Of a stretch of DNA of 62,031 nucleotides, positions 3,749-29,058 are shown one piece after another. Under the pieces are notes generated by a model, which was given only the letters and a program-made list of their open reading frames with translations, was not told the origin of the DNA and searched no databases. This stretch comes from a virus. Lineage: Duplodnaviria; Caudoviricetes. How positions within the stretch are numbered: position 1 is the stretch's first letter; each line of letters begins with the position of its first letter. Made by a program: the position numbers and the translations under genes. The DNA is taken from the IMG/VR virus record IMGVR_UViG_3300046170_000369, positions 1 through 62,031 of that record. One strand, given 5' to 3'.

Positions 3749-4450
3749 ATGAATGTAGTTATTGAAGCAAGCCCTCCTATCACGCCTATGATCATTGGTA
3801 GGCAAATCTCTCCTGCCTCATTGTGGGGCGTGGACAAGGGTCATGAGTACCTAGTACAGCCAAAGCTGAATGGTCAGCATGGTATCTGTGGTGTCATGAA
3901 TGGGGACATCGTGGCTCTTAATAAACATGGTAAGCCTCTTACTAAGTTTATGGAGTGGCGCAACCAACTGAGGTATCGCTTAGATACTCCAGCTTGGAGA
4001 GATACAATTGTTAATGGGGAGCTTGTTAAGCTTCCTAGGTCAGGTATAGGACATGAGTGGTTCTTTCCCTTTGATATACTATTCTATAGGGGCAAGGATG
4101 TTAGGCGCACCGCATTTCATGAACGGCTGAAGATTCTCAGGGACTGGATACAGGATCAAGGTGTATGTAACTACACGCCTAGTGTTGATCCATTTATCGC
4201 TGAGAATACCAGACGAATCATACCAAATATCCCATGGCAGAAACAAATGGGATACTTCAATTCAGATAAACAGGAACAGAACCGAAAGAGTATACTAGAG
4301 GCTCTTGTTCCTGGATGTAAGTATCCATTCAGTGCGTGCTTACTTGATGCTAAGGATGATCGCCTCATTGAGGGCGTAGTTCTCAAGCATAGAGACAGCA
4401 TATACATGGGTGGTAAGAACAAATCATTAATTAAAGCGAGGTGGGAATGA
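3749..4450 (+). CDS. ATP-dependent DNA ligase-like nucleotidyltransferase (adenylation domain only)
   Basis: Motif I QPKLNG, III NGELV, IIIa FPFDIL, IV EGVVLK, V LIKAR; the protein ends at motif V. Confidence 0.8.
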   Translation: MNVVIEASPPITPMIIGRQISPASLWGVDKGHEYLVQPKLNGQHGICGVMNGDIVALNKHGKPLTKFMEWRNQLRYRLDTPAWRDTIVNGELVKLPRSGIGHEWFFPFDILFYRGKDVRRTAFHERLKILRDWIQDQGVCNYTPSVDPFIAENTRRIIPNIPWQKQMGYFNSDKQEQNRKSILEALVPGCKYPFSACLLDAKDDRLIEGVVLKHRDSIYMGGKNKSLIKARWE

Positions 4451-4653
4451 ATAGAATCATCATAGAATTATATAAGAAGGTGGATGATAAATATCCTACC
4501 TATCGTTTCACCAGAACATATCCACGATGCTCAAATGATCGTGCTCATGACTTTGCTAACAAGTGGGCACAGAGTCGAGGGAAGGAGTTATTTGATTCTC
4601 CATCTTGGTATGTGAAAACCAAAACAATGTGGACACTAAAACAAAAAGAATGA
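4447..4653 (+). CDS. Hypothetical protein
   Basis: Small ORF coupled to the ligase stop by an ATGA overlap. Confidence 0.55.
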   Translation: MNRIIIELYKKVDDKYPTYRFTRTYPRCSNDRAHDFANKWAQSRGKELFDSPSWYVKTKTMWTLKQKE

Positions 4654-4871
4654 AGCATGACTTTCTAGAACAATTATCCATATCAATGGCTAGGCATGAA
4701 GAAGAAAAAGCCAAGAAGACTGTAGCCGTGAAAGTATGGATAGACAAAACTACTTTTATGATTGTCTGGATGACTCCAGAAGAAGCAGCGCGTCACCGCA
4801 AATTAACTGATCGCAAGGGTCAAACATCTATAGTGCGTAATGTATTGGATAAAGGTGGTAGACTGCAGTAA
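4650..4871 (+). CDS. Hypothetical protein
   Basis: Track ORF 4605-4871; likely start is MKHDF at 4650 (ATGA overlap). Confidence 0.55.
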   Translation: MKHDFLEQLSISMARHEEEKAKKTVAVKVWIDKTTFMIVWMTPEEAARHRKLTDRKGQTSIVRNVLDKGGRLQ

Positions 4872-4980
4872 CAATTTTTAGGAAGCCTCGGGTGGTTAGC
4901 CCTTGGATGACTCTAAAACAACACCGACACTCGGGTGCGAGGCTTCCTATCACTTTGTAAATGGCGTGCAACCGACAGGA

Positions 4981-5415
4981 ATTTACGGAGTGGTAAGCAC
5001 GGGAGGGGCGATGCGGTGAATGGACGAGAACGGAAGGGATTGGCGTGTAGCGGAAAGGCGGGGTCGAGAGAGGCCTTGCTTGACAAGCCAATCGACTGAC
5101 TGAGCGGTCGTAAAACTACTCAGACTATTTAAGGAGGGGACATGCTCGTGCTTGGAACGGAGGTGGCGAGGCTGTGCAATGGACGGACCGGCAAGGAACG
5201 GCAAGGGACTGACTAGGCAGTCTATAAATAACCTAGAGTATTTCAGGGGCGAGGCCTGCAATGGCGAGGACACGCATGGCTTTGGCGATGTCTGGCGAGG
5301 CGAGGCATGGGACTGACAGGGCAGTCGTTAAGTAACCCTGAGTATTTCAATGCTTGGATCTGCGATGTCGGGTCAGGCATGGAAGGGAAAAGACTGGAGT
5401 GGAAGGGCAAGGAAA
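4981..5415 (+). ncRNA. Array of four 5-nt-periodic (GGN-NN)n tracts with conserved 37-nt pseudoknot linkers; candidate guide-RNA array (VIPR-like)
   Basis: Tracts 4987-5081, 5133-5204, 5248-5308, 5351-5415; linkers GACTGAC-N4-CRGTC-N9-N4'-GASTATTT at 5094-5130, 5207-5243, 5311-5347; directly upstream of the RAMP-like gene. Confidence 0.85.
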
Positions 5416-5453
5416 GTTCCACATCCAATTAACAAACATAAACAATAATATAT

Positions 5454-6038
5454 ATGAAAAAAATAAGTATAGATGTAGAAGGGATTACTCCCATGTTATT
5501 ACACAATGGTCAGACTGCTGACCCACTGAATGAGTTCAGTAAAGAACTCAAGAAAGTATCAGGGAAACGCAACAAGACCGATGAAGATCACGCCCTTATG
5601 GGGGATATAGAGTGGCGAGCAGGTCTGTATTGGGACGACAAGCTTGGTGTATTCATGCCTGCCGAGAACCTACAGGCTATGTTATTGGCTGCCGCTAAGA
5701 AAACGAAGCAAGGTGCTCAATCCATACACATCCTTGTGGATGATGATATGGCAATCAAGTTCAAGAACTCCACTAAGTTCGATAAGCTTGAGAAAGACCC
5801 TGATATGAGGGACAGGAGAATCTGTCGAGTAGGTACTGCAAAGATAGCACGGACTCGTCCTAAGATTCCAGTGGGCTGGTCAGGCACTATTAATCTACTG
5901 ATCGATGTGGATGGTATCGATGAGGATGATGTCATCAAGTTTGCGGAGACTGCCGGGAAAATTATCGGCATGGGTGACTGGCGTCCTGAGAAGCGTGGGC
6001 GTTTCGGTAAGTTTGTAGTAACTAATGTCGTCAAGTGA
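5454..6038 (+). CDS. Stand-alone RAMP/Cas7-like RNA-binding protein (Vipr-like)
   Basis: N-terminal strand ISIDVEGITPMLLH, MPAENLQAML helix and C-terminal Gly-rich loop GMGDWRPEKRGRFGKFVV, typical of RAMP-fold proteins; no other cas genes in the window. Confidence 0.8.
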   Translation: MKKISIDVEGITPMLLHNGQTADPLNEFSKELKKVSGKRNKTDEDHALMGDIEWRAGLYWDDKLGVFMPAENLQAMLLAAAKKTKQGAQSIHILVDDDMAIKFKNSTKFDKLEKDPDMRDRRICRVGTAKIARTRPKIPVGWSGTINLLIDVDGIDEDDVIKFAETAGKIIGMGDWRPEKRGRFGKFVVTNVVK

Positions 6039-6532
6039 GTAGGTCTACATTACTACCAACTCGTAAGCATCCTGTGGAGAGGCATGTCTTTGAACAGCTT
6101 GAGGATGCAATTGACTATGGTGAGGTCATTAAGTGGCACATCATTGAGGAGATTGCTGATATGCCTAGGCTAGTACATGGCATTGTTGATCCTAAGTTTG
6201 CATTCATGTGGATGCAGGTGTCTCAGATGTTAGAGGGTAGAGGCTTCTTTACTACTGAACGAGGGATGAATGGTGAGGGCTTTAGGGTGTTGCAACGCGA
6301 AGAAGTAGCCTCCCATAACGATAAGAAGGTCAAGCAGGACATCAAGCAATGGGAACGCAGAGTTGTTGGTATGTCCTGCGTGTCTCGTGATGGCATGAGT
6401 CATGACGAGCAACGCAAGCTTGATCATATACAAAACAAAGTGGTCATGATGGCTGAGGTGAACAAACACCTGATGAGGAAGCGTAACCTTCCTATGCCAG
6501 GAAAAGCATTGGAGGCTGTTAAGTCATTATGA
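6035..6532 (+). CDS. Hypothetical protein coupled to the RAMP-like gene (possible winged helix plus helical C-terminus)
   Basis: GTGA overlap with the RAMP-like stop; GEVIKW...GEGFRVL pattern suggests a wHTH wing (inference). Confidence 0.7.
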   Translation: MSRSTLLPTRKHPVERHVFEQLEDAIDYGEVIKWHIIEEIADMPRLVHGIVDPKFAFMWMQVSQMLEGRGFFTTERGMNGEGFRVLQREEVASHNDKKVKQDIKQWERRVVGMSCVSRDGMSHDEQRKLDHIQNKVVMMAEVNKHLMRKRNLPMPGKALEAVKSL

Positions 6533-17696: not shown

Positions 17697-18107
17697 CTAG
17701 CAAATTAATTCCCATCCGTGTCTGTACTTCTCCCACTTTGCTTTACTCATGGGGTTCGGAAATAACTTGATTGTTAAATTTCTACCTATTTTCTCCTTTG
17801 GTATTATGTACCAGTAGGACTCTCCATCTCCTACCACTAAGGCTGCAAGTATATCGTATGCTTTCTCTGCATAGTGATTCTTCTCCGAGGTCTTTGACCC
17901 CATAGCTGTGCTAATATTGTAACCTGTCTTACTTCTTCTGGAAGAAGTTCCTTTTACCTGTACCTTATATAGCCTCCTCCCATTGTCTATAATTACATCG
18001 TAGGGAAGGTAGTCACCTTCTGCTTCACTCACATGCAATCCTCTTTTCATCGCTTCTACTTTAAACATACTCTCATATAATGTGCCTGCGTGCTTGTGTA
18101 TGCTCAT
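17697..18107 (-). CDS. PD-(D/E)XK endonuclease
   Basis: E...PYDVIIDNG...KVQVKG motif. Confidence 0.8.
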   Translation of the reverse strand: MSIHKHAGTLYESMFKVEAMKRGLHVSEAEGDYLPYDVIIDNGRRLYKVQVKGTSSRRSKTGYNISTAMGSKTSEKNHYAEKAYDILAALVVGDGESYWYIIPKEKIGRNLTIKLFPNPMSKAKWEKYRHGWELIC

Positions 18108-21100
18108 AATAAAGCTTGTCTCCTTAGATCGTCTATTTGGACTCTCTTGGTTCTGCTCTCTCCCTTTGGCTTTCCTCCTATGAGTTGTAGATAATAGGAA
18201 TGTTTTAGTAACGCATCTTCGATGTCATTTCTGTCCTCGGGGTCAAGAACTGATAATAGTTTAATCCAATCAGAATCACCCAATGTGTATTTACTTACTC
18301 CGTTCCTTAAGTTTCTTCTTTTAAATCTATCTGCGACATCTTTCTTAGGATCGGCATCGTCGGATAGTTGCAACGCTAACCGATATGCTTCCAAGAAGCT
18401 GTCCCTGTCTCCCACATATGCAGACCTTTCCATTTCCCGTATCGCTATGGACATAGCGTTGGGTCGATAAGATAGTCCTCCCCCAACCTTCTGCGTCTCA
18501 ATACCAATAGCTTTGGTGATTGCCCGCAACTTGTTACGCTGATTCAGAACATTGGTAACCTTGTATTCTGAACTGAATAATGGAAAGTCTTCTGTGCCTA
18601 GTAAGTTATTTGAGTACTGGGCGAATTGTATGACATTGTTCATGCCCACAATGTTCATCAGTGGTCTGATGACTGAGGAATACTCAGGTGTAAATGTATC
18701 AGCCGAACGAGTGTCGATTGCACTCAGGTAGTTCAGGAACACATCACTCAAGTTACTAGCCATACTTACTAGCATAATACGATTAGTAATGTCCCGTTGG
18801 AATGATTCACCTGTAGCTCCAAGCAATGCATTAGTTGCAGCCTCCTGATATATACCACCAAACGATGATGTCCTGCCGAGTCTCTCTATCAAGCTAAGAG
18901 TCCTGAAGGCTGGATCGTTTATTGCAAACAATAAGCCGAATGGTAAGTATGCTTCAGGTGGAACATAGCCAAGACCTGGGTCTTTACCAAGAACCTCCTC
19001 GTCATATAACTCACTACCACGCATAACAAACAATGAGATAGGTACACCAACTGACAATGCAGATAGTGCAAAGACTCCAAATGCTCGGTAAGTATCTATG
19101 TTGCTAGGATCAACTGCATCTCTGCTATCACCACGGAATTTTCGGTTGGCATGAGCAGCCATACTGGTAGACCATCCAAGAAGTGGGCTGGCGTAGATAC
19201 CGCCCTTGGTGTCAAGAATCCTAGCCTTAGCACTTGTCCCATCAAATGTGATTTGGGTACTTGCTATATGTGCAGCAACCAACTTGTTCTTATCAAGAAT
19301 AGGATCAGCACTGAGGTCGCCCTTTCTTCTCCTTCTGAAGTCCTGTGCAAGCTTGGTAATCGAAAGACCAAAGTTGGCAAGCTCACGATCAATACGATCA
19401 TTCACTTCTTTACTATCTCTGAGACTCATGCCCAAGAAGTTATTGGAGTATTCCATGTTCTCAGAACTCAACTCATAGCCATTGTCTTCTGGGTCAACCC
19501 CTAGTTGGTCAAGGGTATGTGCTGCCCCCTCAACTCTTCTCTTCAGGTCAGCCAATACTTCAAGTGTGGTATGCTTGAGCGTAGCATTACTTAACCATGA
19601 GAAAAGGTTAGAGAACCCAGGGATTAAAGAGAAGGTCGATAGTGAACCAGGAGCAGTCGTTAGAGTACCCTCTTCCGCAAGTTTCTCTCTTCCTGGCTCG
19701 CCATTTAAGATCATGTTGATTACCCGATTGTTTACGCCTGGGATTTTAAGACCGCTCTGTAGAGCCGTGCGTAGCATTCTTGTGAACTTACGCATTGAGG
19801 AGGTTTTGGTATTTTCACCTAGCACACCCTTTGCTCCAGCATCACTAAATCTATCTGATGTGGCTGTCTCTAATGATGTCCATAGTGGAGCAAGTGCTTC
19901 CTCTCCATACTGTTTCTTACCTGCGGAGAACATATTCTTGCCAAAGCCCTGCATGATTGTGTCAAGTGCTTCAACTGGCATTCTTTTCAGAACATTAAAT
20001 GCAGCTTTGAAGCCAGCAGGCTGTAAATCATACAGCTGAAAAATTTGATATATGGAAGCCAAGTTCATTATAGCAGACTTGGGATTCGCTACTAACATAC
20101 TAGAGATAGTCTGTAGTGTTTCAACTGCTGCCCTCTCATCAGAAAGCACAGAACCCTGACTCTTCGCATATGCAGCAAAGGCGGGCTTCATCTTCTGTGC
20201 TTCTTTTAATGCATAGATTTTTGTGTAAAGGCTCTTGAGCTTTTCATACTCATCAGAAGTTATTTTCTTTCGTAAGGCACGAGGTAGTCCAAACTTCTTG
20301 GTCGCCTGAATATTAAAGAAGTTCCTGCTATCTAAGTTGCGCTCATTGTCATCACGATCTGCCCATGGGTATGGTTCATCTGTTATCTTCCTGTAGATTA
20401 CATCCCATTCAGCTTCTAGCTCTCTCTCCTTATTCAACAACTCTTTATAGGCAGCATCGAGCTTCTCCTGATTTCTGCCAAAGTGATGAGCCATGAGCAT
20501 CTTGGCTACCATCTGCCTCATGTCGATTTCTGTCATCATGCTGTATGTGAAGAAATGACTAGGTAGTGATACACTTTCGTCCCGTGAGTTTAAAGAGTTC
20601 CAGACCTCTGACTTGTATATAATAGCATTTGGGTTTTCCTTACTCCCTGCTGTTTTCGATTCGTACTCGTCATACTTCTTGACTATCGCATTCGCACGAC
20701 GGTTTATTTGTGTCAGAAAGTCTAATCCGTTCTTTACGAAATCTTTCTTGGATACATTATCGGGCATCAGTTCGGCTATCGTCTGATAAATTCTAGCACC
20801 CACATCTCCACCCTCAGAATTATTCCAAGCTTCCGAAACCTCATCCATAGACACAAGCCTCTCACCCATCATCCACCCAAGGTTACGTGGGTTGCTATAG
20901 TCATTAAGGGTAGGCTCAAGAAAGAAAAGTTCTACATCACTTGACAATTTCCATGCTGATAACTCTGCCTGAAAAGAGTTTCTATCGTAGTCCTCCTCAT
21001 ACAAAGGATCATTTTTATCTGTCTTCTCTTTAATGCTAGTAACTATCTGATTAAAGATATTAGTCTTTTCATTATTCCTTGTTAAAGCACGACTAGCATC

Positions 21101-24100
21101 CCTGAGGTTTTGCATCATCAGCATTCTAGGAAGAGTCAATGCACCCATTGGGATTTGGCCTCTATAGAGTGTTCTTTTCTGAAGCAGAGGATCCATTATT
21201 TTTATGCTATCCTCAATGGGCAGATTAAATTCTTTGGCTGTCTTCTGGATCAGGTTGTTGGCTACCTGTATTTCCTGTACAAGCTCCATCCATCTCTTCT
21301 TTGCCTTCGCATCATCGTTATGAATCTTAAATCTTTGCTTTTTAAGAGTAGACCAAAAGTCCTCTGCCAGCGAATTAAGGTCATCAATCTTGGGTTGCCC
21401 CTCGACATATGCCATGAATGGATTAAATAGATACTGCTGGATTTGCTCGAGCGAAAGTTTTTTACCTGCACCATTCCGTAACTCAGCCTGTAGGTTGTAC
21501 CATGCCCTACTTACTGAGTGTCCCTGCCTCACTGCATTTGATCCATACTGCCTAAGCTCTGTATTCAGGCGGTTAATCATTGTGGAAATCATCAAGGCTT
21601 CCTCATCACCTGCACGGGAAACAACCTGCGAGAATGATTCAAGGTATGAAAATGCTGTACCTGTAAATGTGGCATCATAGGATTTAGCCAAGCCTTGTTC
21701 AATCAATGCATAGGTTCTGGCAAAAGCATCTCGATGAGCATCCGATATCTTATACTTGGGATTCTCAAGGATAGCCTTCATCCTGTTTGCTTTCTGCACA
21801 AACTCAGTGTAGCCCTTCCCTGAAACCATGTACTTAACTTTTATTGGTACAATGTTTCCTTCCTTATCCAGGTCGAGCATATCAACCATGTCCCCCACGG
21901 CTACCTCTGGAGTAATCACAGAACCAAGGTAGTCTTCGATCTGCATAGACCTCTCATTATACTTCTCAATGAGATGCTTGCCTAGTGGCATCAATTGTGT
22001 CTGCTTGGCAATCTTCTGATTAAGAGCGGTCATCTGTTTGCGAACCTGCTTAACCTCATCTATCTGCTTACCAAGGATTCCTGTGGTGGACACATCCTTC
22101 CAGTCATCTGATATTGCTGCCTGTCTGAGAGCTTCAACTTCCAGCTTCAATGCACGGGTTGGTGCATTCTTGGATAGTCTCATCTCAATAGAAAATGCAG
22201 ACCTAGCTTTATTCTTGGTGTCCTTGTGTAGCATCTCAGCAAGTAAGGCACGAACAACATTATCCTGTCTCTCGCCAGTTAGCCCCTCAAACATATCAGC
22301 CGACGATACCTGTCCCTCAAGAGCATCATATATCTCCTGTCTCGACATCTGCTCTGGAGCCATACCCCCTTCGATTATTGCCTGAAGTACCTCGTACACT
22401 TTATTAGCACGGAGGTTATCAATGAACTCTCCCTTATTGTAATCAGGCATACCCGCAAGATTGTTGTATCGGGTGTTATTGATTAAGCTCTTCAGCTTCT
22501 TTTCTACAAGCTTCTTAACCTTATCAGGGTCATATCTCTTTCCTGATGCTAAGTCCTCAAGTCTCTTCTTGTTCTTCGCCAGCTCTTCCTCCGACTCCTT
22601 CACAATCTTGTCGGTCTTCTGCATCTGTCTGGTAATTAAATCTTTTGATCCTTCGATTAGCTCCAAGGTTCTTCTGGCTACACGCATCCGCTCTGCGGTG
22701 GTTGCAAACTTGCCAATCGAATCAATTGGCTCTGCACCTTCCTGATCAAGCATCTTGGACAACGCCTGCTCCCTGTCTGCAGTTCGTGCCATGCTTTCCC
22801 CTTTCTTGAGCTTTTTCTTAGCAGCTTTTAGAGCGAGATTAAGGATACCAACCTTAGTAACAGACAGTCTGTTCTTTAAAAGGTTCTCGGTAATTTCATT
22901 CTGTAGCTCTTCAGGAAGTGTGGATGTCGCCTCCGTTAGTACCTTCATTAACTCAGCCAACGCTGCATATTCCTTCTGCAAGTTTTGCTCGACCTCACTC
23001 CTACTTGGGGTGTGAGAGTACATCTCAGAGTTGAGGGAAATCTTGCGGTACACATGTGAATTAGATACATCCGTTACATCCCTTCGCCTATTATAAAGAA
23101 CACTACTAGGGTTCTCCAAAGCATTATTTATGTTACGAACAAGGGCTTTTATAAAATCCCTCTGACCACGCGGCGAGGAGAGTTCCTCTTCAGGCATTCC
23201 ACGATAGATAGTTTCTCCGTCGAAGGGAGATTTTATCGCCAGTGCTCCACCTACCCTTTTGACTTCTTGAGATAAATCTTCGGTTGGCTCGAAGGCTTCA
23301 TCTCGTTTAAAAGTGAAGCCTAGCCGTTTAGACATTTCTATAGCATCCTCAAAAAGAGTTGCCTCTCGGGAGGATGGTTTACCCCTAGCTAGGTATTGCA
23401 CAAAAGCCTTTAATGTAGCTATCCTGTCCTGTTGTTTTAGTGTTAATAATCCTGTGTACGGAGAGTCGTTGTACTCCTCTGCACCTTCGTCGATTTTCTT
23501 TCTAGCCTCTCTTGCTTCCATCGAAAGCTGTAGGGAGCTTTTCTTAGATTTCTGAGGCGAAGGTTGATTTGGCCCAAGGTAATTTAAATCTGTAATCGCA
23601 GGCTTTTTCTGACCTTCTATTTGGATTTTAATCTTAAGATTGTTGTCTGAGAGGGTGGATTCATTAATATACGCACCATCTAATTTTCCATGATCAGGGT
23701 GAATTACTTCGAGAACTGTAGCTTCATCGCTTTTATCATCACCTTCCCACCAATAGCCCATCTCTTCCCATATTTTTCTTTTTTCCTCTAGCGTAGAGTT
23801 TGCCCAATTAGCTCTCTGTGTATCGTTAGGTCTTCGTCCTGTATGGTTCTTGAAGTAGTCACTATATAGATCATCCATCTCCCGCTCTGTTAGCGGAGGC
23901 TCGTAAAAGTAGAGTACTTTATCTCTTTTTTGAATTTTAGTTTCTGCCTCTAGATCACCATTTCCAAAAAGCACAGCAAAAGGTTGAGATTCCGTTTGTC
24001 CTGTCGGAGTAGAATTATTGATGTAATTATCTAAGATATAATTAACCATCTCACCTGTGGTGCGAGTAGCATGTTCTTGAATGCTTTCTCTACTTCCCAC

Positions 24101-25075
24101 CTTAGAGGCATCTGGACGCACCAATAGCTGTATAGCTTTTTCGTCAAGCGCACCTTTTTTGCTCTTAGCGTATGCTATTTTCTCTGATCCTGTGGCACTT
24201 TCAGGCACTTGAGTTAAGAGTGTCAATCCAAGTACATCCTTAATCTCTTTCTTTAAATCCTTTGGAAATATTACAGCCTTACTATCCTTATACCTATTTA
24301 GGTTTTTAACTAGATTATCGAGTTTCTCTTGCTGTACCTTACCCTCAAAGTATTCCCCGTCTTCCAGTATCGCTCTGCCCTCTTCATCAACTCCTTCCAA
24401 GCTCTGTAGGGATTCCGATTTACCTAACAGACTCTTCTTAAACTTCCTGTATTTATTCCACTGGCTATCTGAGATTTTATCAGACCCAAGCGTTGGGCGA
24501 GAAATGCCAAGCTGTGCTCGGATAGCATTAGCTAGTCGATCAACATCACCTTCCTTATTTAAGCCTAGTCCTCCTGCTAAGGTCAGGGCTGTGCCTGAAA
24601 TCATATCAGACTGATCATTATCAATTGTTGTTCTTGATAAATAACTACGGGCAATTGTTTGGAAGTCTCGATTCGCTACTGCTTCTTTTGGTATTCTGTA
24701 AAATTCCTGATATGTGGGTGCTCTCCAATCATCTTCCTCTACAGGGTCAGGGTCTTTGTTCTCACTCTTACCTTCCCAAAAATCAAAGAACTGCTGAGAT
24801 GCCAGTATTGGCTGACTCTCCAGTGAACTCATAAGGAATATATGATTCTCACCACTAATTTTATTTGAGTCCTTAAAGAATGTCTTCAGGTGGTCATCCA
24901 TCATCTCTAGGATTGATGCCTCTGGGATGCCTGTAAATATACGGGAAAGTATTCTGCGGAAGAAGTCCCCTACCCTTTGGAGGGTTGTTCGGTATCTAGG
25001 CACGGAAACTCTTTGGGTAACTTGAGGTTTTCTATCTCTGCACGGAAGTTGGCGTCTATTGCATAGCTTGCCCAC
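18104..25075 (-). CDS. Giant internal virion/ejection protein, C-terminal part (frameshifted from upstream ORF near 25005)
   Basis: 2323 aa, largely helical; sits at the end of the structural module. Confidence 0.7.
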   Translation of the reverse strand: MGKLCNRRQLPCRDRKPQVTQRVSVPRYRTTLQRVGDFFRRILSRIFTGIPEASILEMMDDHLKTFFKDSNKISGENHIFLMSSLESQPILASQQFFDFWEGKSENKDPDPVEEDDWRAPTYQEFYRIPKEAVANRDFQTIARSYLSRTTIDNDQSDMISGTALTLAGGLGLNKEGDVDRLANAIRAQLGISRPTLGSDKISDSQWNKYRKFKKSLLGKSESLQSLEGVDEEGRAILEDGEYFEGKVQQEKLDNLVKNLNRYKDSKAVIFPKDLKKEIKDVLGLTLLTQVPESATGSEKIAYAKSKKGALDEKAIQLLVRPDASKVGSRESIQEHATRTTGEMVNYILDNYINNSTPTGQTESQPFAVLFGNGDLEAETKIQKRDKVLYFYEPPLTEREMDDLYSDYFKNHTGRRPNDTQRANWANSTLEEKRKIWEEMGYWWEGDDKSDEATVLEVIHPDHGKLDGAYINESTLSDNNLKIKIQIEGQKKPAITDLNYLGPNQPSPQKSKKSSLQLSMEAREARKKIDEGAEEYNDSPYTGLLTLKQQDRIATLKAFVQYLARGKPSSREATLFEDAIEMSKRLGFTFKRDEAFEPTEDLSQEVKRVGGALAIKSPFDGETIYRGMPEEELSSPRGQRDFIKALVRNINNALENPSSVLYNRRRDVTDVSNSHVYRKISLNSEMYSHTPSRSEVEQNLQKEYAALAELMKVLTEATSTLPEELQNEITENLLKNRLSVTKVGILNLALKAAKKKLKKGESMARTADREQALSKMLDQEGAEPIDSIGKFATTAERMRVARRTLELIEGSKDLITRQMQKTDKIVKESEEELAKNKKRLEDLASGKRYDPDKVKKLVEKKLKSLINNTRYNNLAGMPDYNKGEFIDNLRANKVYEVLQAIIEGGMAPEQMSRQEIYDALEGQVSSADMFEGLTGERQDNVVRALLAEMLHKDTKNKARSAFSIEMRLSKNAPTRALKLEVEALRQAAISDDWKDVSTTGILGKQIDEVKQVRKQMTALNQKIAKQTQLMPLGKHLIEKYNERSMQIEDYLGSVITPEVAVGDMVDMLDLDKEGNIVPIKVKYMVSGKGYTEFVQKANRMKAILENPKYKISDAHRDAFARTYALIEQGLAKSYDATFTGTAFSYLESFSQVVSRAGDEEALMISTMINRLNTELRQYGSNAVRQGHSVSRAWYNLQAELRNGAGKKLSLEQIQQYLFNPFMAYVEGQPKIDDLNSLAEDFWSTLKKQRFKIHNDDAKAKKRWMELVQEIQVANNLIQKTAKEFNLPIEDSIKIMDPLLQKRTLYRGQIPMGALTLPRMLMMQNLRDASRALTRNNEKTNIFNQIVTSIKEKTDKNDPLYEEDYDRNSFQAELSAWKLSSDVELFFLEPTLNDYSNPRNLGWMMGERLVSMDEVSEAWNNSEGGDVGARIYQTIAELMPDNVSKKDFVKNGLDFLTQINRRANAIVKKYDEYESKTAGSKENPNAIIYKSEVWNSLNSRDESVSLPSHFFTYSMMTEIDMRQMVAKMLMAHHFGRNQEKLDAAYKELLNKERELEAEWDVIYRKITDEPYPWADRDDNERNLDSRNFFNIQATKKFGLPRALRKKITSDEYEKLKSLYTKIYALKEAQKMKPAFAAYAKSQGSVLSDERAAVETLQTISSMLVANPKSAIMNLASIYQIFQLYDLQPAGFKAAFNVLKRMPVEALDTIMQGFGKNMFSAGKKQYGEEALAPLWTSLETATSDRFSDAGAKGVLGENTKTSSMRKFTRMLRTALQSGLKIPGVNNRVINMILNGEPGREKLAEEGTLTTAPGSLSTFSLIPGFSNLFSWLSNATLKHTTLEVLADLKRRVEGAAHTLDQLGVDPEDNGYELSSENMEYSNNFLGMSLRDSKEVNDRIDRELANFGLSITKLAQDFRRRRKGDLSADPILDKNKLVAAHIASTQITFDGTSAKARILDTKGGIYASPLLGWSTSMAAHANRKFRGDSRDAVDPSNIDTYRAFGVFALSALSVGVPISLFVMRGSELYDEEVLGKDPGLGYVPPEAYLPFGLLFAINDPAFRTLSLIERLGRTSSFGGIYQEAATNALLGATGESFQRDITNRIMLVSMASNLSDVFLNYLSAIDTRSADTFTPEYSSVIRPLMNIVGMNNVIQFAQYSNNLLGTEDFPLFSSEYKVTNVLNQRNKLRAITKAIGIETQKVGGGLSYRPNAMSIAIREMERSAYVGDRDSFLEAYRLALQLSDDADPKKDVADRFKRRNLRNGVSKYTLGDSDWIKLLSVLDPEDRNDIEDALLKHSYYLQLIGGKPKGESRTKRVQIDDLRRQALL

Positions 25076-28000
25076 ATCTCCTGCTCACTAGTTAATATCT
25101 CAGAGTACTTGCCTTCTTTGGCGTACTTCTCTCTAAGGAAGTCAAAGATAGCTCCTGATGATTTACTTAAGTACTCAAAGTCTTTTATGCTTAACTTACC
25201 TTTGTAGTGGCTTGGTAGGAATCCATTCCTTCTGTAGTTATGTAGGGCATCTATGGTTGTGTACAATACGGCATGCTGAAGCTCTTCCGCTAGCACCCTG
25301 ATCATGTGCTGGAGTCTTTCGGCTTCTGTCATTTCTGTTCCGTCAGACTTAACATAACCATAATAGTTACCCATCATGATGTGTGGGTCTTCTTCCCCGC
25401 CCCTAGATAGAGGACTATACTGCCCGTACCTTGTAGGCACAGGTTGCCCCGCACGCTCTTTCTCAATACGAATCTGCTCAGTAACAGCCGCCCATTGCTC
25501 GTCAGTTGCCCATACTACATCAACATTATTAAGTTGCTTACGGAGTGGCTGTAGCATCTCCAGTACCCTTGCGGTACTCTCATCATCTACCAATTTGATT
25601 GCACGGACTAATGCATCGTATCCCTTAATTACTTTTCCTGGTTCTGCACCCTGTAGGAATTGTGTGCGGATGCGGTCACTCTCCTGTGCTGCGACTTCAG
25701 GATTTGGTTCACGCTCAGCACCTACCCTTTGTGAAGCAGTGACAATACCACTACCCCCACCCATATCACTACTGCCATCGTACACCCCAGCATCAAGAAC
25801 TCCTTCTTCTTTCTGCTCATCAACCTTATCGGTTACATACTCGTATACATTTCTGCCTGTTGCATCCTCTAAATCGCTTCTCCAATTTTCTAAAAACTTA
25901 GCATCGCCCTGAGAAAGTATTGTGCCCACTGCTAGTGGAGCATGCCCCACTTCTTCCTGCATATCCAGAAGAGTATTCGCTAGACTTTCATTGCTACTAG
26001 AAAGAATGTCCTCAGACCTTAAAGTCGATATCTCGTATCCATGCCCTGCATGAAATGTGTCCTCCCAAGTACTAAGCTCGGCCTTTACCCTGGATATATC
26101 TAGCTCAGTGGATTGACTTATATTTATTAAGCCCAATTGAGCAGCAGCCGATCGTACAGCGTCCTTGTTAATTCCACCACCGACAGCTTTTGCTGGCTCA
26201 TTAGGGTCATAGTTTTTCTCAAAGCTCTCCCTGAATGATGGATCATTAATTAGCCTATCAAGAATACCCTCAGAAAACTCTTTTGTTTTTTGGATCTTCT
26301 CCTCAACCAATCGCTTACTTTCCTCTAAGTCCTGTATCTCTTTATCTATATCGATCTGCTCCTGAAATACTAAATCACCCTCATTCAAAAGATTCACATC
26401 CGCTATATTATCAGCGTTCTGAATTATCTTTCTATTGTCTTCCCTTAATCCCTCGATTCGGTCATTTAGACTTTTAAGAACATCACTATAGCTTTTGCCT
26501 AAGCTTTCATCCTCAGTGCCGTCGACTGTTTCATTTATCTCTTCCTGAATCTCAGCCTTTAGTTCTTCAGTAATATCAGCAGGATTAACACGCTCTGTGT
26601 TATCAGAATCAAAAAAGTACCAGTAAAGAATGTCTAGTATATCCTGATGCAATGCACCTTCTTGATCTTTAACATTAAGTAGGTTCCTCAACTCGACAGC
26701 CTGCCTGACCTTTTCAGCCATAACCAACATCTCTTCCAGGGTAGGCAATGGAGGTATTCCACCATTCTCCATGAAGAAATTATAGATCGCACCCTCTTCA
26801 GTTATATCTAACTTATAAAGCTCAGGTAGTTTATTTCCGTACTGCTTGATCAAGCGGTCTTTTATTTCGTCAGGTATACTACCATCTTCAAAAAGTATAT
26901 TCCTTAGCGTCTTATATCCATAGGACTTGAACTCACTCCACCAATACGGAAGGTTAGAGTTAGGATTCTTATCTTTGGTTGCAATACCCTGGCTTGTTTT
27001 CTTTCCACCAAAAAGTTTCTTAAGGAAAGGATTATTACCCTCCTTACCATTATACATATGCTCCTCATAATCCGCACCGAGGTTGAGCTTTCCGCCATTC
27101 TTTGCACGCTTGCGAGCAGCCCAGAGTTGTTCAAATTGGGAAAGCTCTCTTATGCGAACCTGACCGCCCTGCTCTAATCCTTGAGTAAGGTAATCAAGAT
27201 ATGCCGATAGCTCAGGAAATTCAGCATATTTATTCTCAGCCAGCTTTTGCTGAATAAAACTTTTAATCTCATATATTCTTCTCTCAGCAAACTTTGCTAT
27301 ATCTGCTTTAGCTGCTTCTCTTTGGTCAGGCGGAAAATAAAGGTGAGCATATGGATTGTAACCTTCACTATCTGTAAGCTCCTCATTCTCAGGATCATTA
27401 TCGAATCTATATTTAGGATGACCATTCTCTACAGCTTTTACATTCTGCTCACGAACTGCGTCCATGAAGCTCTGCATGGTTGCGAAGTTTGAGTTAGCAG
27501 TAAAAAAGTTTTCACTCTCCAGAAGACCAACTACCTTAAAGGTTGCATCGCCCTCAAGCTGTACACCATCTCCATTATCTACAAAAGGACTACCCTCGTT
27601 TTGCCCTATAGTTGAAAAGCTACTCGATATATCACTTGGGTTAGGCTTTGTGAATGGATTAAATTTTCCACTGTTTCTATTTGAGGATTTATGGATAACG
27701 AGATTGTAGTTATCGAAACCGAAATGATTCTTTTCTTTCAGCTTCTTTATTTCCTCCCTTTTCTTGCCTTCTTTCTTTTTCTTGCTCTTATAGTAGATTG
27801 ATCGTACTGCGACCCGACCATAATGATCGACTACAACTATTGCTTTTTTTGAATACCCGTTTGCGTTACTTGTACCAATCAAGCCAAGCTCCTTGACCTG
27901 CTCTAGTACATCATCACCTGTAACTGGTATAAGTTCGCTCTCCAAGTACTCCTTCGGCGACATGTTTGAGCCACCGGAACTTGTTATACTAAATTGAACA

Positions 28001-29058
28001 CCTGCTACGCTATCCTCGATTACCGAGTTGCTGTAGGATATAAACTCATTCTTCTTTAGTGTTTTCTTCTTCTTTTGACCACCACCAGTTTGTCTAGTTT
28101 CTTGGGTTACTTCATACTTCTTACCGCCCATCTCTGAGACGATATTATTAAAGTGTTGAGCAAATATTCCGCTATTGCCTCTTATGTCAAATCTGCCCGA
28201 CTTTAACGGCATGCCTTTGATAAAGGTAGGCTTACCATCTAAGGTTTGATTTGTGCCAATATCACTTCCGAACTCTACTATATTACCATCATCATCAATA
28301 TAACCATACGCTACAGTTAGATCACCCTCCGCTCTTAGGGCTGGTTCACGAGTAAGTACAGTCGGTACAACACTATCTTTATGTACAAGCGTGTTGTCCT
28401 TTATAATATACCTGCCATCTTCAAGTCTTGTGTACAAGAAAGGTGGTTGCTTTGGCTTCTTTATTTTTAGCTTAGGTGGCTTAGGTGGCTTTATTACTGG
28501 GACGAGTTTATTATTCTCGATCCGTACAGTAGGATTGCGAAAGGCTGTGTATCGTCTGGCACCATTTACATCAGCTAAAGATTCAGGCTCAGAAAATACT
28601 TCTGCTTGGTTCTCAAGGTATCCCCATACGATGTCTCCATCCTCAGATACACTCTTTACTCTTCTTGGAGAACCCTTGTAGTTCCATAAAGTGTTAGGCT
28701 TAAATCTTTCTTTCCTCTCCTCGATTAACCTCTTTCTTTTCTCCTGCTCCTTTTGTTCAGATGTCTTCTTCTTTTTAAGTGTGGTTTTCTTGGTGGATGT
28801 TTTGTCGACTCCGCCTGTGTATTTTACCCTGCCATTCTTTACTTCAAAGTCTTCTCTTTGATTAAGGTAGGACTTGATGGCACTTTTCTCATCTCGGTTT
28901 TTTACTAAGCCTAACTCCTGATTTACAAACTCTGTAATCTTTTTGTTATCTTTGTCTGTCTCTCCTTTTACATCATCTACTATGCTGTTGTAGGTAGTTG
29001 CAACGCGAACCCGTGCTTTATAATCTAAGATCATCGTCACTGATGGTATCTCCATCAA
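24970..29058 (-). CDS. Giant virion protein, middle part with degenerate zincin-like motif
   Basis: 1362 aa; RVLAEELQHAV...EQEMWASY resembles HExxH...E. Confidence 0.7.
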   Translation of the reverse strand: MMEIPSVTMILDYKARVRVATTYNSIVDDVKGETDKDNKKITEFVNQELGLVKNRDEKSAIKSYLNQREDFEVKNGRVKYTGGVDKTSTKKTTLKKKKTSEQKEQEKRKRLIEERKERFKPNTLWNYKGSPRRVKSVSEDGDIVWGYLENQAEVFSEPESLADVNGARRYTAFRNPTVRIENNKLVPVIKPPKPPKLKIKKPKQPPFLYTRLEDGRYIIKDNTLVHKDSVVPTVLTREPALRAEGDLTVAYGYIDDDGNIVEFGSDIGTNQTLDGKPTFIKGMPLKSGRFDIRGNSGIFAQHFNNIVSEMGGKKYEVTQETRQTGGGQKKKKTLKKNEFISYSNSVIEDSVAGVQFSITSSGGSNMSPKEYLESELIPVTGDDVLEQVKELGLIGTSNANGYSKKAIVVVDHYGRVAVRSIYYKSKKKKEGKKREEIKKLKEKNHFGFDNYNLVIHKSSNRNSGKFNPFTKPNPSDISSSFSTIGQNEGSPFVDNGDGVQLEGDATFKVVGLLESENFFTANSNFATMQSFMDAVREQNVKAVENGHPKYRFDNDPENEELTDSEGYNPYAHLYFPPDQREAAKADIAKFAERRIYEIKSFIQQKLAENKYAEFPELSAYLDYLTQGLEQGGQVRIRELSQFEQLWAARKRAKNGGKLNLGADYEEHMYNGKEGNNPFLKKLFGGKKTSQGIATKDKNPNSNLPYWWSEFKSYGYKTLRNILFEDGSIPDEIKDRLIKQYGNKLPELYKLDITEEGAIYNFFMENGGIPPLPTLEEMLVMAEKVRQAVELRNLLNVKDQEGALHQDILDILYWYFFDSDNTERVNPADITEELKAEIQEEINETVDGTEDESLGKSYSDVLKSLNDRIEGLREDNRKIIQNADNIADVNLLNEGDLVFQEQIDIDKEIQDLEESKRLVEEKIQKTKEFSEGILDRLINDPSFRESFEKNYDPNEPAKAVGGGINKDAVRSAAAQLGLINISQSTELDISRVKAELSTWEDTFHAGHGYEISTLRSEDILSSSNESLANTLLDMQEEVGHAPLAVGTILSQGDAKFLENWRSDLEDATGRNVYEYVTDKVDEQKEEGVLDAGVYDGSSDMGGGSGIVTASQRVGAEREPNPEVAAQESDRIRTQFLQGAEPGKVIKGYDALVRAIKLVDDESTARVLEMLQPLRKQLNNVDVVWATDEQWAAVTEQIRIEKERAGQPVPTRYGQYSPLSRGGEEDPHIMMGNYYGYVKSDGTEMTEAERLQHMIRVLAEELQHAVLYTTIDALHNYRRNGFLPSHYKGKLSIKDFEYLSKSSGAIFDFLREKYAKEGKYSEILTSEQEMWASYAIDANFRAEIENLKLPKEFPCLDTEQPSKG

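Follow-up and report, generated by a model that had tools for sequence, protein, structure and literature searches.

VIPR has been described in 2026 preprints as a CRISPR-like, RNA-guided DNA-silencing system (10.64898/2026.04.26.720920). According to the available part of that text, its components are a minimal RAMP that branches early and is named Vipr, an accessory gene (vap) and vrRNAs of ~100 nt. Each vrRNA carries 9-16 YNNGG repeats, the NN of which serve as a gapped guide to double-stranded DNA, and ends in an "invariable 3' extension" (10.64898/2026.04.26.720920). In the SUSP1 clade this tail contains a pseudoknot, modelled by eye from five tails of phages with >90% identical Vipr proteins, and in other VIPR types hammerhead ribozymes are interspersed between the units (10.64898/2026.04.26.720920, available text). 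The SUSP1 tail stays attached and intact in cryo-EM, and the P. fulva system is described as being without such a pseudoknot (10.64898/2026.04.26.720927, available text). The accessible part of a further preprint speaks of a "vrRNA 3' pseudoknot tail" and states that a consensus tail makes the RNA competent for Vipr complex formation (10.64898/2026.10.15.759431). In the available text, the 2026 preprints propose that the RAMP effectors of CRISPR descend from a viral VIPR ancestor and that VIPR offers a minimal platform for programmable DNA binding.

The locus described here lies in a stretch of viral DNA of 62,031 nt (the window) and, judged from its sequence, is a VIPR system of a marine phage from a distant clade. 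It encodes a Vipr homologue, recognised by its fold, 34% identity to phiSUSP1 Vipr, His17 and the GDWRP motif. Pentamer tracts, the putative guides, run on the strand of this gene, with M-N-N-K-G as a related consensus rather than a strict GGY, and are closed by a conserved structured 3' tail that covaries and has the topology of the phiSUSP1 tail. The locus is an independent and distant VIPR example, and its pseudoknot tail is backed by formal covariation on 11 distinct copies, compared with five tails aligned by eye in the preprint (10.64898/2026.04.26.720920, available text). A distant, covarying example of this kind indicates that the pseudoknot cap also occurs outside the coliphage clade. 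New here are the distant marine clade with its compact head-to-tail array, in which 7 nt lie between a tail and the next guide, the M-N-N-K-G repeat consensus and a possible base triple between loop 3 and stem 1, although the preprint figures (Fig. S9; cryo-EM fig. S8) may already show details called new here, such as loop-stem contacts.

Structured tails of the probable guide RNAs

Three 37-nt elements at 5094-5130, 5207-5243 and 5311-5347 on the + strand are covarying RNA pseudoknots. Their positions in the original prediction agree with the sequence, and the common stem 1 (S1) that it named, GACTG/C(G or A)GTC, can be read in all three copies. Each copy is ordered as the 5' strand of S1, L1, the 5' strand of S2, the 3' strand of S1 (CGGTC or CAGTC), L3, the 3' strand of S2 and finally ACTATTT or AGTATTT. 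In tail 1, S1 occupies nucleotides 1-5/12-16 and S2 nucleotides 7-11/26-30, with an L1 of 1 nt and an A-rich L3 of 9 nt before the closing ACTATTT; the endings of copies 1 to 3 are GACTATTT, GAGTATTT and GAGTATTT. As had been noticed, the S2 strands differ from copy to copy (CTGAG/CTCAG in tail 1, CTAGG/CCTAG in tail 2, CAGGG/CCCTG in tail 3) and each is fully complementary. A covariance model of the pseudoknot (R1) scores the three tails at 59, 53 and 56 bits, respectively. The S1 pattern occurs without mismatch at three sites in the window, and shuffled sequence gave a mean of 1.46 matches at <=2 mismatches. The elements stand as they were first described except for the label "linker", which is a slight misnomer because each is the 3' tail of the guide RNA upstream of it.

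In phiSUSP1 (KT454805.2), an H-type pseudoknot of the same topology closes all four vrRNA tracts, with an S1 of 4 bp in three different helices, an S2 of 5-6 bp, likewise in three helices, and an A-rich L3 of 7-9 nt. The likeness to the marine phage is close: in both, the tail follows directly on the last GG of a pentamer tract, is ~37-40 nt long and folds as an H-type pseudoknot with 4-5 bp in S1, 5-6 bp in S2 formed from the S1 loop, and an A-rich L3 of 7-9 nt that starts with (G/A)T(T/A)AA. Each locus also lies beside a homologous Vipr gene and has a ligase gene on its upstream side. The tails differ in that S1 is fixed in the window (GACUG/CRGUC) and variable in phiSUSP1, and in that the window tail has an L1 of 1 nt and no L2. 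The layout differs as well, as the window holds a head-to-tail array upstream of vipr, whereas SUSP1 has one unit upstream and three spaced units downstream. All four SUSP1 tracts are tailed, while the last tract of the window (5348-5412) is not.

Small H-type pseudoknots with an A-rich loop in the minor groove of stem 1 are also found in the preQ1-I riboswitch and in luteovirus frameshift pseudoknots. The classical geometry of this class fits the window tail, with a 1-nt L1 over the 5-bp S2 and a 9-nt A-rich L3 along the 5-bp S1. This resemblance to small A-rich-loop pseudoknot aptamers could point to a preQ1-I-like ligand aptamer, and the richness of the tracts in GGA could point to a CsrA/RsmA sponge built from GGA motifs. 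Neither a preQ1 nor a Csr/Rsm model of Rfam matches at E up to 10, and in contrast to the preQ1-I and luteovirus elements the tails are multicopy within a guide array and have neither a slippery site nor a downstream expression platform. VIPR accounts for the strict 5-nt spacing of GG and for the association with a RAMP gene, which neither alternative does; the sponge was dropped on these two grounds, and the aptamer or sponge reading as a whole is improbable to the point of being almost negligible.

Selection on RNA structure

Relatives were found via the downstream protein and the linker pattern. They comprise a near-identical phage (L001, L004 and L010 are one IMG/VR contig, and L005 is a metagenome contig) and a divergent phage contig, L007. 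The near-identical phage has four tails, those of L005 being the same four as in L001, and L007 has six upstream of the homologous gene. A regex scan recovered 17 sense-strand copies (three in the window, four in L001, four in L005 and six in L007), every one of them with 5/5 S2 pairs, and nine antisense matches to the loose S1 pattern with 0-3 S2 pairs. When the three related phages are aligned, all 110 pair cells in the 11 distinct copies are standard, and compensatory double changes occur at four of the five S2 pairs, with UA, CG, GC and AU found at one position and GC and AU at another. Neither the observed paired percentage nor the covariation score was attained in any of 500 shuffles, and alignments slid by 1-3 columns were 26-42% paired. 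As a negative control, a relaxed S1+loop pattern (S1+L3) was searched in bacterial and archaeal genomes, and one of the 121 chance matches listed had 5/5 S2 pairs.

Natural variants behave in the same manner. Twenty public runs in 19 studies (seawater metagenomes) contain the window stretch or part of it; they were examined as contigs, which give no ends, strand or level and are uninformative for uncovered parts. Positions 5318 and 5339, an S2 pair of tail 3, change together in the contigs of all three variant-carrying seawater runs.

The two helices of the pseudoknot are documented in different ways, as S2 is compensated within this clade and the covariation of S1 comes from the phiSUSP1 tails. 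In the 11 distinct copies S1 is paired in 55/55 cells and varies at one pair alone (U.G in six copies, U-A in five), with no double compensatory change in this set. S1 does vary among the phiSUSP1 tails, and because three different S1 helices are found there, it covaries in the wider family. When single copies are folded thermodynamically with nested pairs only, their energies do not differ significantly from those of shuffles (z -0.5 to -1.8), and the evidence is thus one of covariation and not of energy. The nested-only folds flip between S1 and S2, as is to be expected if both helices form.

The + strand is fixed by the G.U pairs, since these would be A.C mismatches on the other strand, and the elements, the GG-periodic tracts and the RAMP gene next to them all point the same way. 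Taken together, the S2 covariation, the G.U pairs, this shared orientation and the SUSP1 topology uphold the earlier claim of selection on RNA structure on the + strand. An N4-type DNA hairpin promoter or other DNA palindrome was rejected on account of the G.U pairs and the S2 covariation downstream.

One further association may reflect tertiary structure. Column 13 of the alignment (the 3' base of S1 pair 4, G/A) is perfectly associated with column 24 (L3 nucleotide 8, U/A) in 11/11 tails, with a mutual information of 0.99 bit, equal to that of a Watson-Crick pair. A base triple between L3 nucleotide 8 and S1 pair 4 is plausible on this pattern because column 24 sits where L3 should reach the S1/S2 junction. 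Alternatively, the two tail subtypes could be two old lineages.

Putative guide tracts and array layout

The array fills a gap of 580 nt (4872-5453) that is G-rich, with a strong GC skew, and contains no credible ORF, Rfam match or tRNA. A blastn search of the region against phage genomes gave no match, and a small ORF within a tract (5142-5216) was rejected as not conserved in L001. Spurious ORFs over G-rich DNA likewise misled upstream-gap lengths that were taken from ORF calls. On the + strand, the array is preceded by a leader hairpin at 4879-4949, a perfect 12-bp inverted repeat (4879-4890/4938-4949) that is kept in L001 and L005. The tracts themselves are strictly periodic, with GG counts of 25, 23 and 23 at lags of 5, 10 and 15 versus 2-10 at all remaining lags between 2 and 14.

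Pentamer tiling on the + strand delimits four tracts, with about 13-15 units per tailed tract. The first (4950-5093), the putative guide region of vrRNA-1, is unusually long at ~2x the usual length, and its 3' 56 nt (5038-5093) are self-complementary and conserved. The putative guide tract of vrRNA-2 (5131-5206) has 15 units (14 pentamers and one of 6 nt), and that of vrRNA-3 (5244-5310) has 13 (12 pentamers and one of 6 nt). Consecutive tails start 113 and 104 nt apart, and the end of S2 is separated from the next tract by 7 nt, the junction A(C/G)UAUUU. The fourth GG-periodic tract (5348-5412) has 13 in-phase pentamers and no pseudoknot tail, as no R1 match follows it. It may represent a guide in decay, a guide that has no tail, or a leader that binds Vipr for autoregulation. 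This tract continues into the vipr leader (5348-5453), and relatives carry 9-nt and 2-nt deletions there (L001; contig of run X13).

Among 209 pentamers from the window, L001 and L007 the repeat consensus is M-N-N-K-G, with A 95, C 91, T 17 and G 6 at position 1, G 142 and T 45 at position 4 and G 177 at position 5. This differs from the YNNGG of SUSP1 in that A and C are equally frequent at the third position, counted as GG then Y.

Arrays vary by whole units between strains, with three tails in the window and four in L001, as expected for guide cassettes. In L001:2440-2645, compared with window 4950-5093, an extra tail (S2 AGGGG/CCCCT) and a different tract are inserted. A contig of seawater run X1 has 119 bases in place of 52 in the first tract, and in a contig of run X20 tail 3 follows another tract. 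Such differences by whole units between near-identical phages, together with the exchanges in X1 and X20, would also suit a DNA-level repeat, in which the 37-mers provide homology for the recombination of guide cassettes and their pairing is incidental. Recombination, however, needs identity, and the copies differ exactly at the paired positions, always with compensation; the G.U pairs are moreover a strand-specific constraint on RNA. A DNA-level repeat is therefore very improbable, and cassette exchange is better read as a by-product of the repeated tails.

The compact array shares several traits with CRISPR arrays. Structured elements of ~37 nt alternate with variable guides, as CRISPR repeats and crRNA handles do, beside a Cas7-fold protein that would, by analogy, form filaments, and strains differ by whole units in both. 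In contrast to CRISPR, with its Cas6-type 3' hairpin and 8-nt 5' tag, the guides of the window are pentamer repeats with a gapped code and not contiguous spacers, and the recurring element is a pseudoknot with compensated differences between copies instead of an identical repeat. No cas1/cas2-like or other cas genes were found among the 10 neighbouring proteins scanned. A CRISPR array proper was rejected on these three grounds: "spacers" made of pentamer repeats, repeats that differ at compensated positions and a neighbourhood with no cas1/cas2-like matches.

By analogy, the tracts are putative DNA guides in this phage as well. A search with the published 1-nt-skip rule gave 0 exact IMG/VR matches for two guides. 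In ~0.5 Mb of local sequence the best matches equalled those of shuffled guides, which is a weak test on little sequence.

Vipr and its genomic neighbours

The vipr gene (5454-6038, + strand) encodes a minimal RAMP of 194 aa with a Csm3/Cas7 fold (AF2 pLDDT 94; phrog_4652; no Pfam match). Its model matches Csm3 in Foldseek with E 5.7e-7 and prob 1.0, and more broadly the Csm3/Cas7 backbone subunits of type III, type VII, Cas7-11 and type IV effectors. Structure alignment with VIA gives Z 11.6 and rmsd 3.7 over 158 aligned residues. Homology to phiSUSP1 Vipr is seen directly in BLASTP (34% identity, E 1e-35), and His17 and the G-loop GDWRP are conserved between the two proteins. Both are named as contacts of the two guanines in the available text of 10.64898/2026.04.26.720927, where the SUSP1 Vipr pocket is also said to exclude purines. 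In a pairwise alignment the pocket residues named as purine-excluding differ in the window protein, for example M72 to N72. Together with A or C at the corresponding repeat position, the differing residues suggest from sequence that the specificity of the pocket is altered in the window clade. Since A and C are preferred at the third repeat position, the specificity of the "Y pocket" would seem to vary between clades, which matters for reprogramming.

Downstream, an ORF of 165 aa (6035-6532, + strand) is a candidate vap gene that is conserved beside vipr in array-bearing relatives, with homologues beside vipr in L007 (39%) and in a further locus, L011 (33%; tblastn). The model of its product is mediocre (pLDDT 73), with weak winged-helix-type matches (E 0.06-0.5), and the protein has only three near-identical homologues in the database and no similarity to the gene in the same position in phage HY02.

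Upstream of the locus lies a ligase-family gene (3749-4450, 233 aa) with weak Pfam matches to DNA ligase and RNA ligase. A ligase gene, annotated as putative DNA ligase, is also found upstream in Felixounavirus/Suspvirus coliphages (L090:1006-2106; L092), so this synteny is kept at 34-35% Vipr identity. Elsewhere in the window, the minus strand carries two adjacent very large ORFs of 2323 and 1362 aa as well as further ORFs of 1334 and 1376 aa (18104-29058); the very large minus-strand ORFs could encode virion-associated giant proteins.

Proposed assembly and separation of vrRNA units

Each of the three elements very likely forms the structured 3' tail of its own vrRNA in a phage VIPR system. 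In the mechanism proposed here, the region 4950-5412 would be transcribed on the + strand, and each unit would consist of ~13-15 pentamers (M-N-N-K-G, GG every 5 nt) followed by the 37-nt tail. Vipr would polymerise along the tract with one protomer per pentamer, holding the GG(Y/M) bases and presenting the NN dinucleotides to double-stranded DNA as a gapped guide. The tail would fold into a compact H-type pseudoknot, with S2 stacked on S1 and the A-rich L3 in the minor groove of S1, and would serve as a cap or handle where the filament ends on the 3' side. By marking the filament end it would define a unit RNA of ~104-113 nt, and the 7-nt A(C/G)UAUUU junction would be the site where the units separate. 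This mechanism builds on the covarying structure, the tract periodicity, the RAMP fold, the homology to SUSP1 Vipr and the common tail topology seen in this analysis. That a filament forms, that the pseudoknot is placed as its cap and that DNA is targeted is taken from the available text of the SUSP1 preprints (10.64898/2026.04.26.720920, 10.64898/2026.04.26.720927) and by analogy presumably holds in the marine phage too. Of the roles first suggested for the element, that of a cap at which the protein filament stops, so setting the unit RNAs, matches by homology the SUSP1 description in those parts of the preprints.

How the units become separate RNAs is a further question posed by the compact layout. 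As a tail and the guide behind it are only 7 conserved nucleotides apart, a promoter for each unit would not fit in, and since no promoter-like site was found either (no sigma-70-like promoter in 4500-6100), the array is probably matured from one precursor, a step on which the available preprint text is silent. It is possible, if doubtful, that the tails themselves are the maturation signal, with the pseudoknot and the A(C/G)UAUUU junction of a single precursor directing cleavage by an endonuclease, either an RNase E-type enzyme of the host or Vipr in a Cas6-like role. The pseudoknot would then block 3'-to-5' exonucleases, a role that is compatible with that of a cap and may be an added function. 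Processing signal and exonuclease block were the other two roles first suggested for the element, and both are plausible. The tight spacing and the lack of a promoter agree with such a signal, as does phiSUSP1, where ~45-50 nt with a recurring element lie between units. The ACTATTT/AGTATTT junction is conserved in 9/11 distinct tails, and a similar ACAGTTT follows the hairpin tails of L011. The hammerheads between units in other VIPR types (10.64898/2026.04.26.720920, available text) imply that unit separation is a real need.

Other observations speak against a maturation signal. The TATTT motif is missing from the last tail of L007 and from one other tail. An RNA-library (oligo-dT) contig of 151 nt, X19 (5254-5404), crosses the tail-tract junction at 5347/5348, and may be DNA carry-over. 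In the available text of the preprints, the word "processing" occurs once in 10.64898/2026.04.26.720920, 0 times in 10.64898/2026.10.15.759431 and 12 times in 10.64898/2026.04.26.720927, where the accessible passages deal with cryo-EM data processing. A more specific form of the idea, in which the tails are CRISPR-repeat-like signals on one precursor and are cut at a specific site, possibly by the ancestral RAMP Vipr in the way of Cas6, is unlikely. Each cut would leave the 3' part of a "repeat" on the following guide as its 5' handle, and arrays of this type, if real, would stand functionally midway between those of VIPR and the repeat-spacer arrays of CRISPR. The CRISPR-array-like compactness of the locus makes the separation of vrRNA units directly testable.

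A pseudoknotted, conserved and repeated element between RNA units also brings to mind a small self-cleaving ribozyme that releases the units. At 37 nt with two 5-bp helices, the element is, to our knowledge, below the size of the known self-cleaving classes. Rfam 15 gave 0 gathering-level matches in the window, and at E up to 10 the sole match in 4800-5500 was a 14-bit chance match to an enterobacterial sRNA model, with no ribozyme or riboswitch family among the matches. Hammerhead-interspersed arrays of other VIPR types offer a precedent (10.64898/2026.04.26.720920, available text), but the homologous SUSP1 tail is still attached in cryo-EM (10.64898/2026.04.26.720927, available text), and self-cleavage by the tails is extremely improbable.

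Tail diversity among Vipr homologues

Across the wider family, GG-periodic tracts lie on the strand of the gene, directly up- or downstream, in 76 of the 80 IMG/VR loci that encode a homologue, and weak GG-tract matches on the other strand were seen in 2/80. The R1 model matches the window and L007 alone among 81 sources (the window, L007 and 79 loci, L011-L089). Searched as an exact pattern, the linker recurred in IMG/VR in the near-identical contig alone and in metagenomes in five loci, of which the real ones are L005 and L007; L006, L008 and L009 have single pattern matches without GG tracts and were judged by eye to be due to chance. No recurrent tail of the window type was found in the other fetched loci, with scans that recovered 1/3 of the window tails and 4/4 of the SUSP1 tails, so that absence is not shown by them. 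Another generic pseudoknot scan was far too noisy, and Rfam found nothing besides two tRNAs in seven related loci.

Tail type varies by clade, with simple hairpins in L011 and L059 and T-arm-like minihelices in L071, and L019 has a single tract without a tail. Like the hammerhead arrays, as described in the available preprint text, these tails or separators share the 3' position and strand of the window tail and differ from it in fold. In L011 (1800-2460, + strand), whose Vipr is 46% identical, unrelated hairpin tails are followed by ACAGTTT, akin to ACTATTT/AGTATTT. An A/U-rich junction motif common to the tail classes may be a cleavage or end motif.

In L071 (1950-2400, + strand) the elements between tracts resemble minihelices of a tRNA acceptor and T-arm, with loops of the GGTTCGAG/GGTTCAGG type, and comparison of the four copies shows covariation in both stems. 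Neither ARAGORN nor Rfam called a tRNA there, and "tRNA-like" has 0 occurrences in the available text of 10.64898/2026.04.26.720920. These minihelices could recruit RNase P/Z to separate the units. L081, one of the 4/80 homologue loci without a GG-periodic tract on the strand of the gene, has upstream of that gene (2260-2335, + strand) an element that looks like a tRNA by eye, together with a thrice-repeated GAATTGTTTTTGAG-type element.
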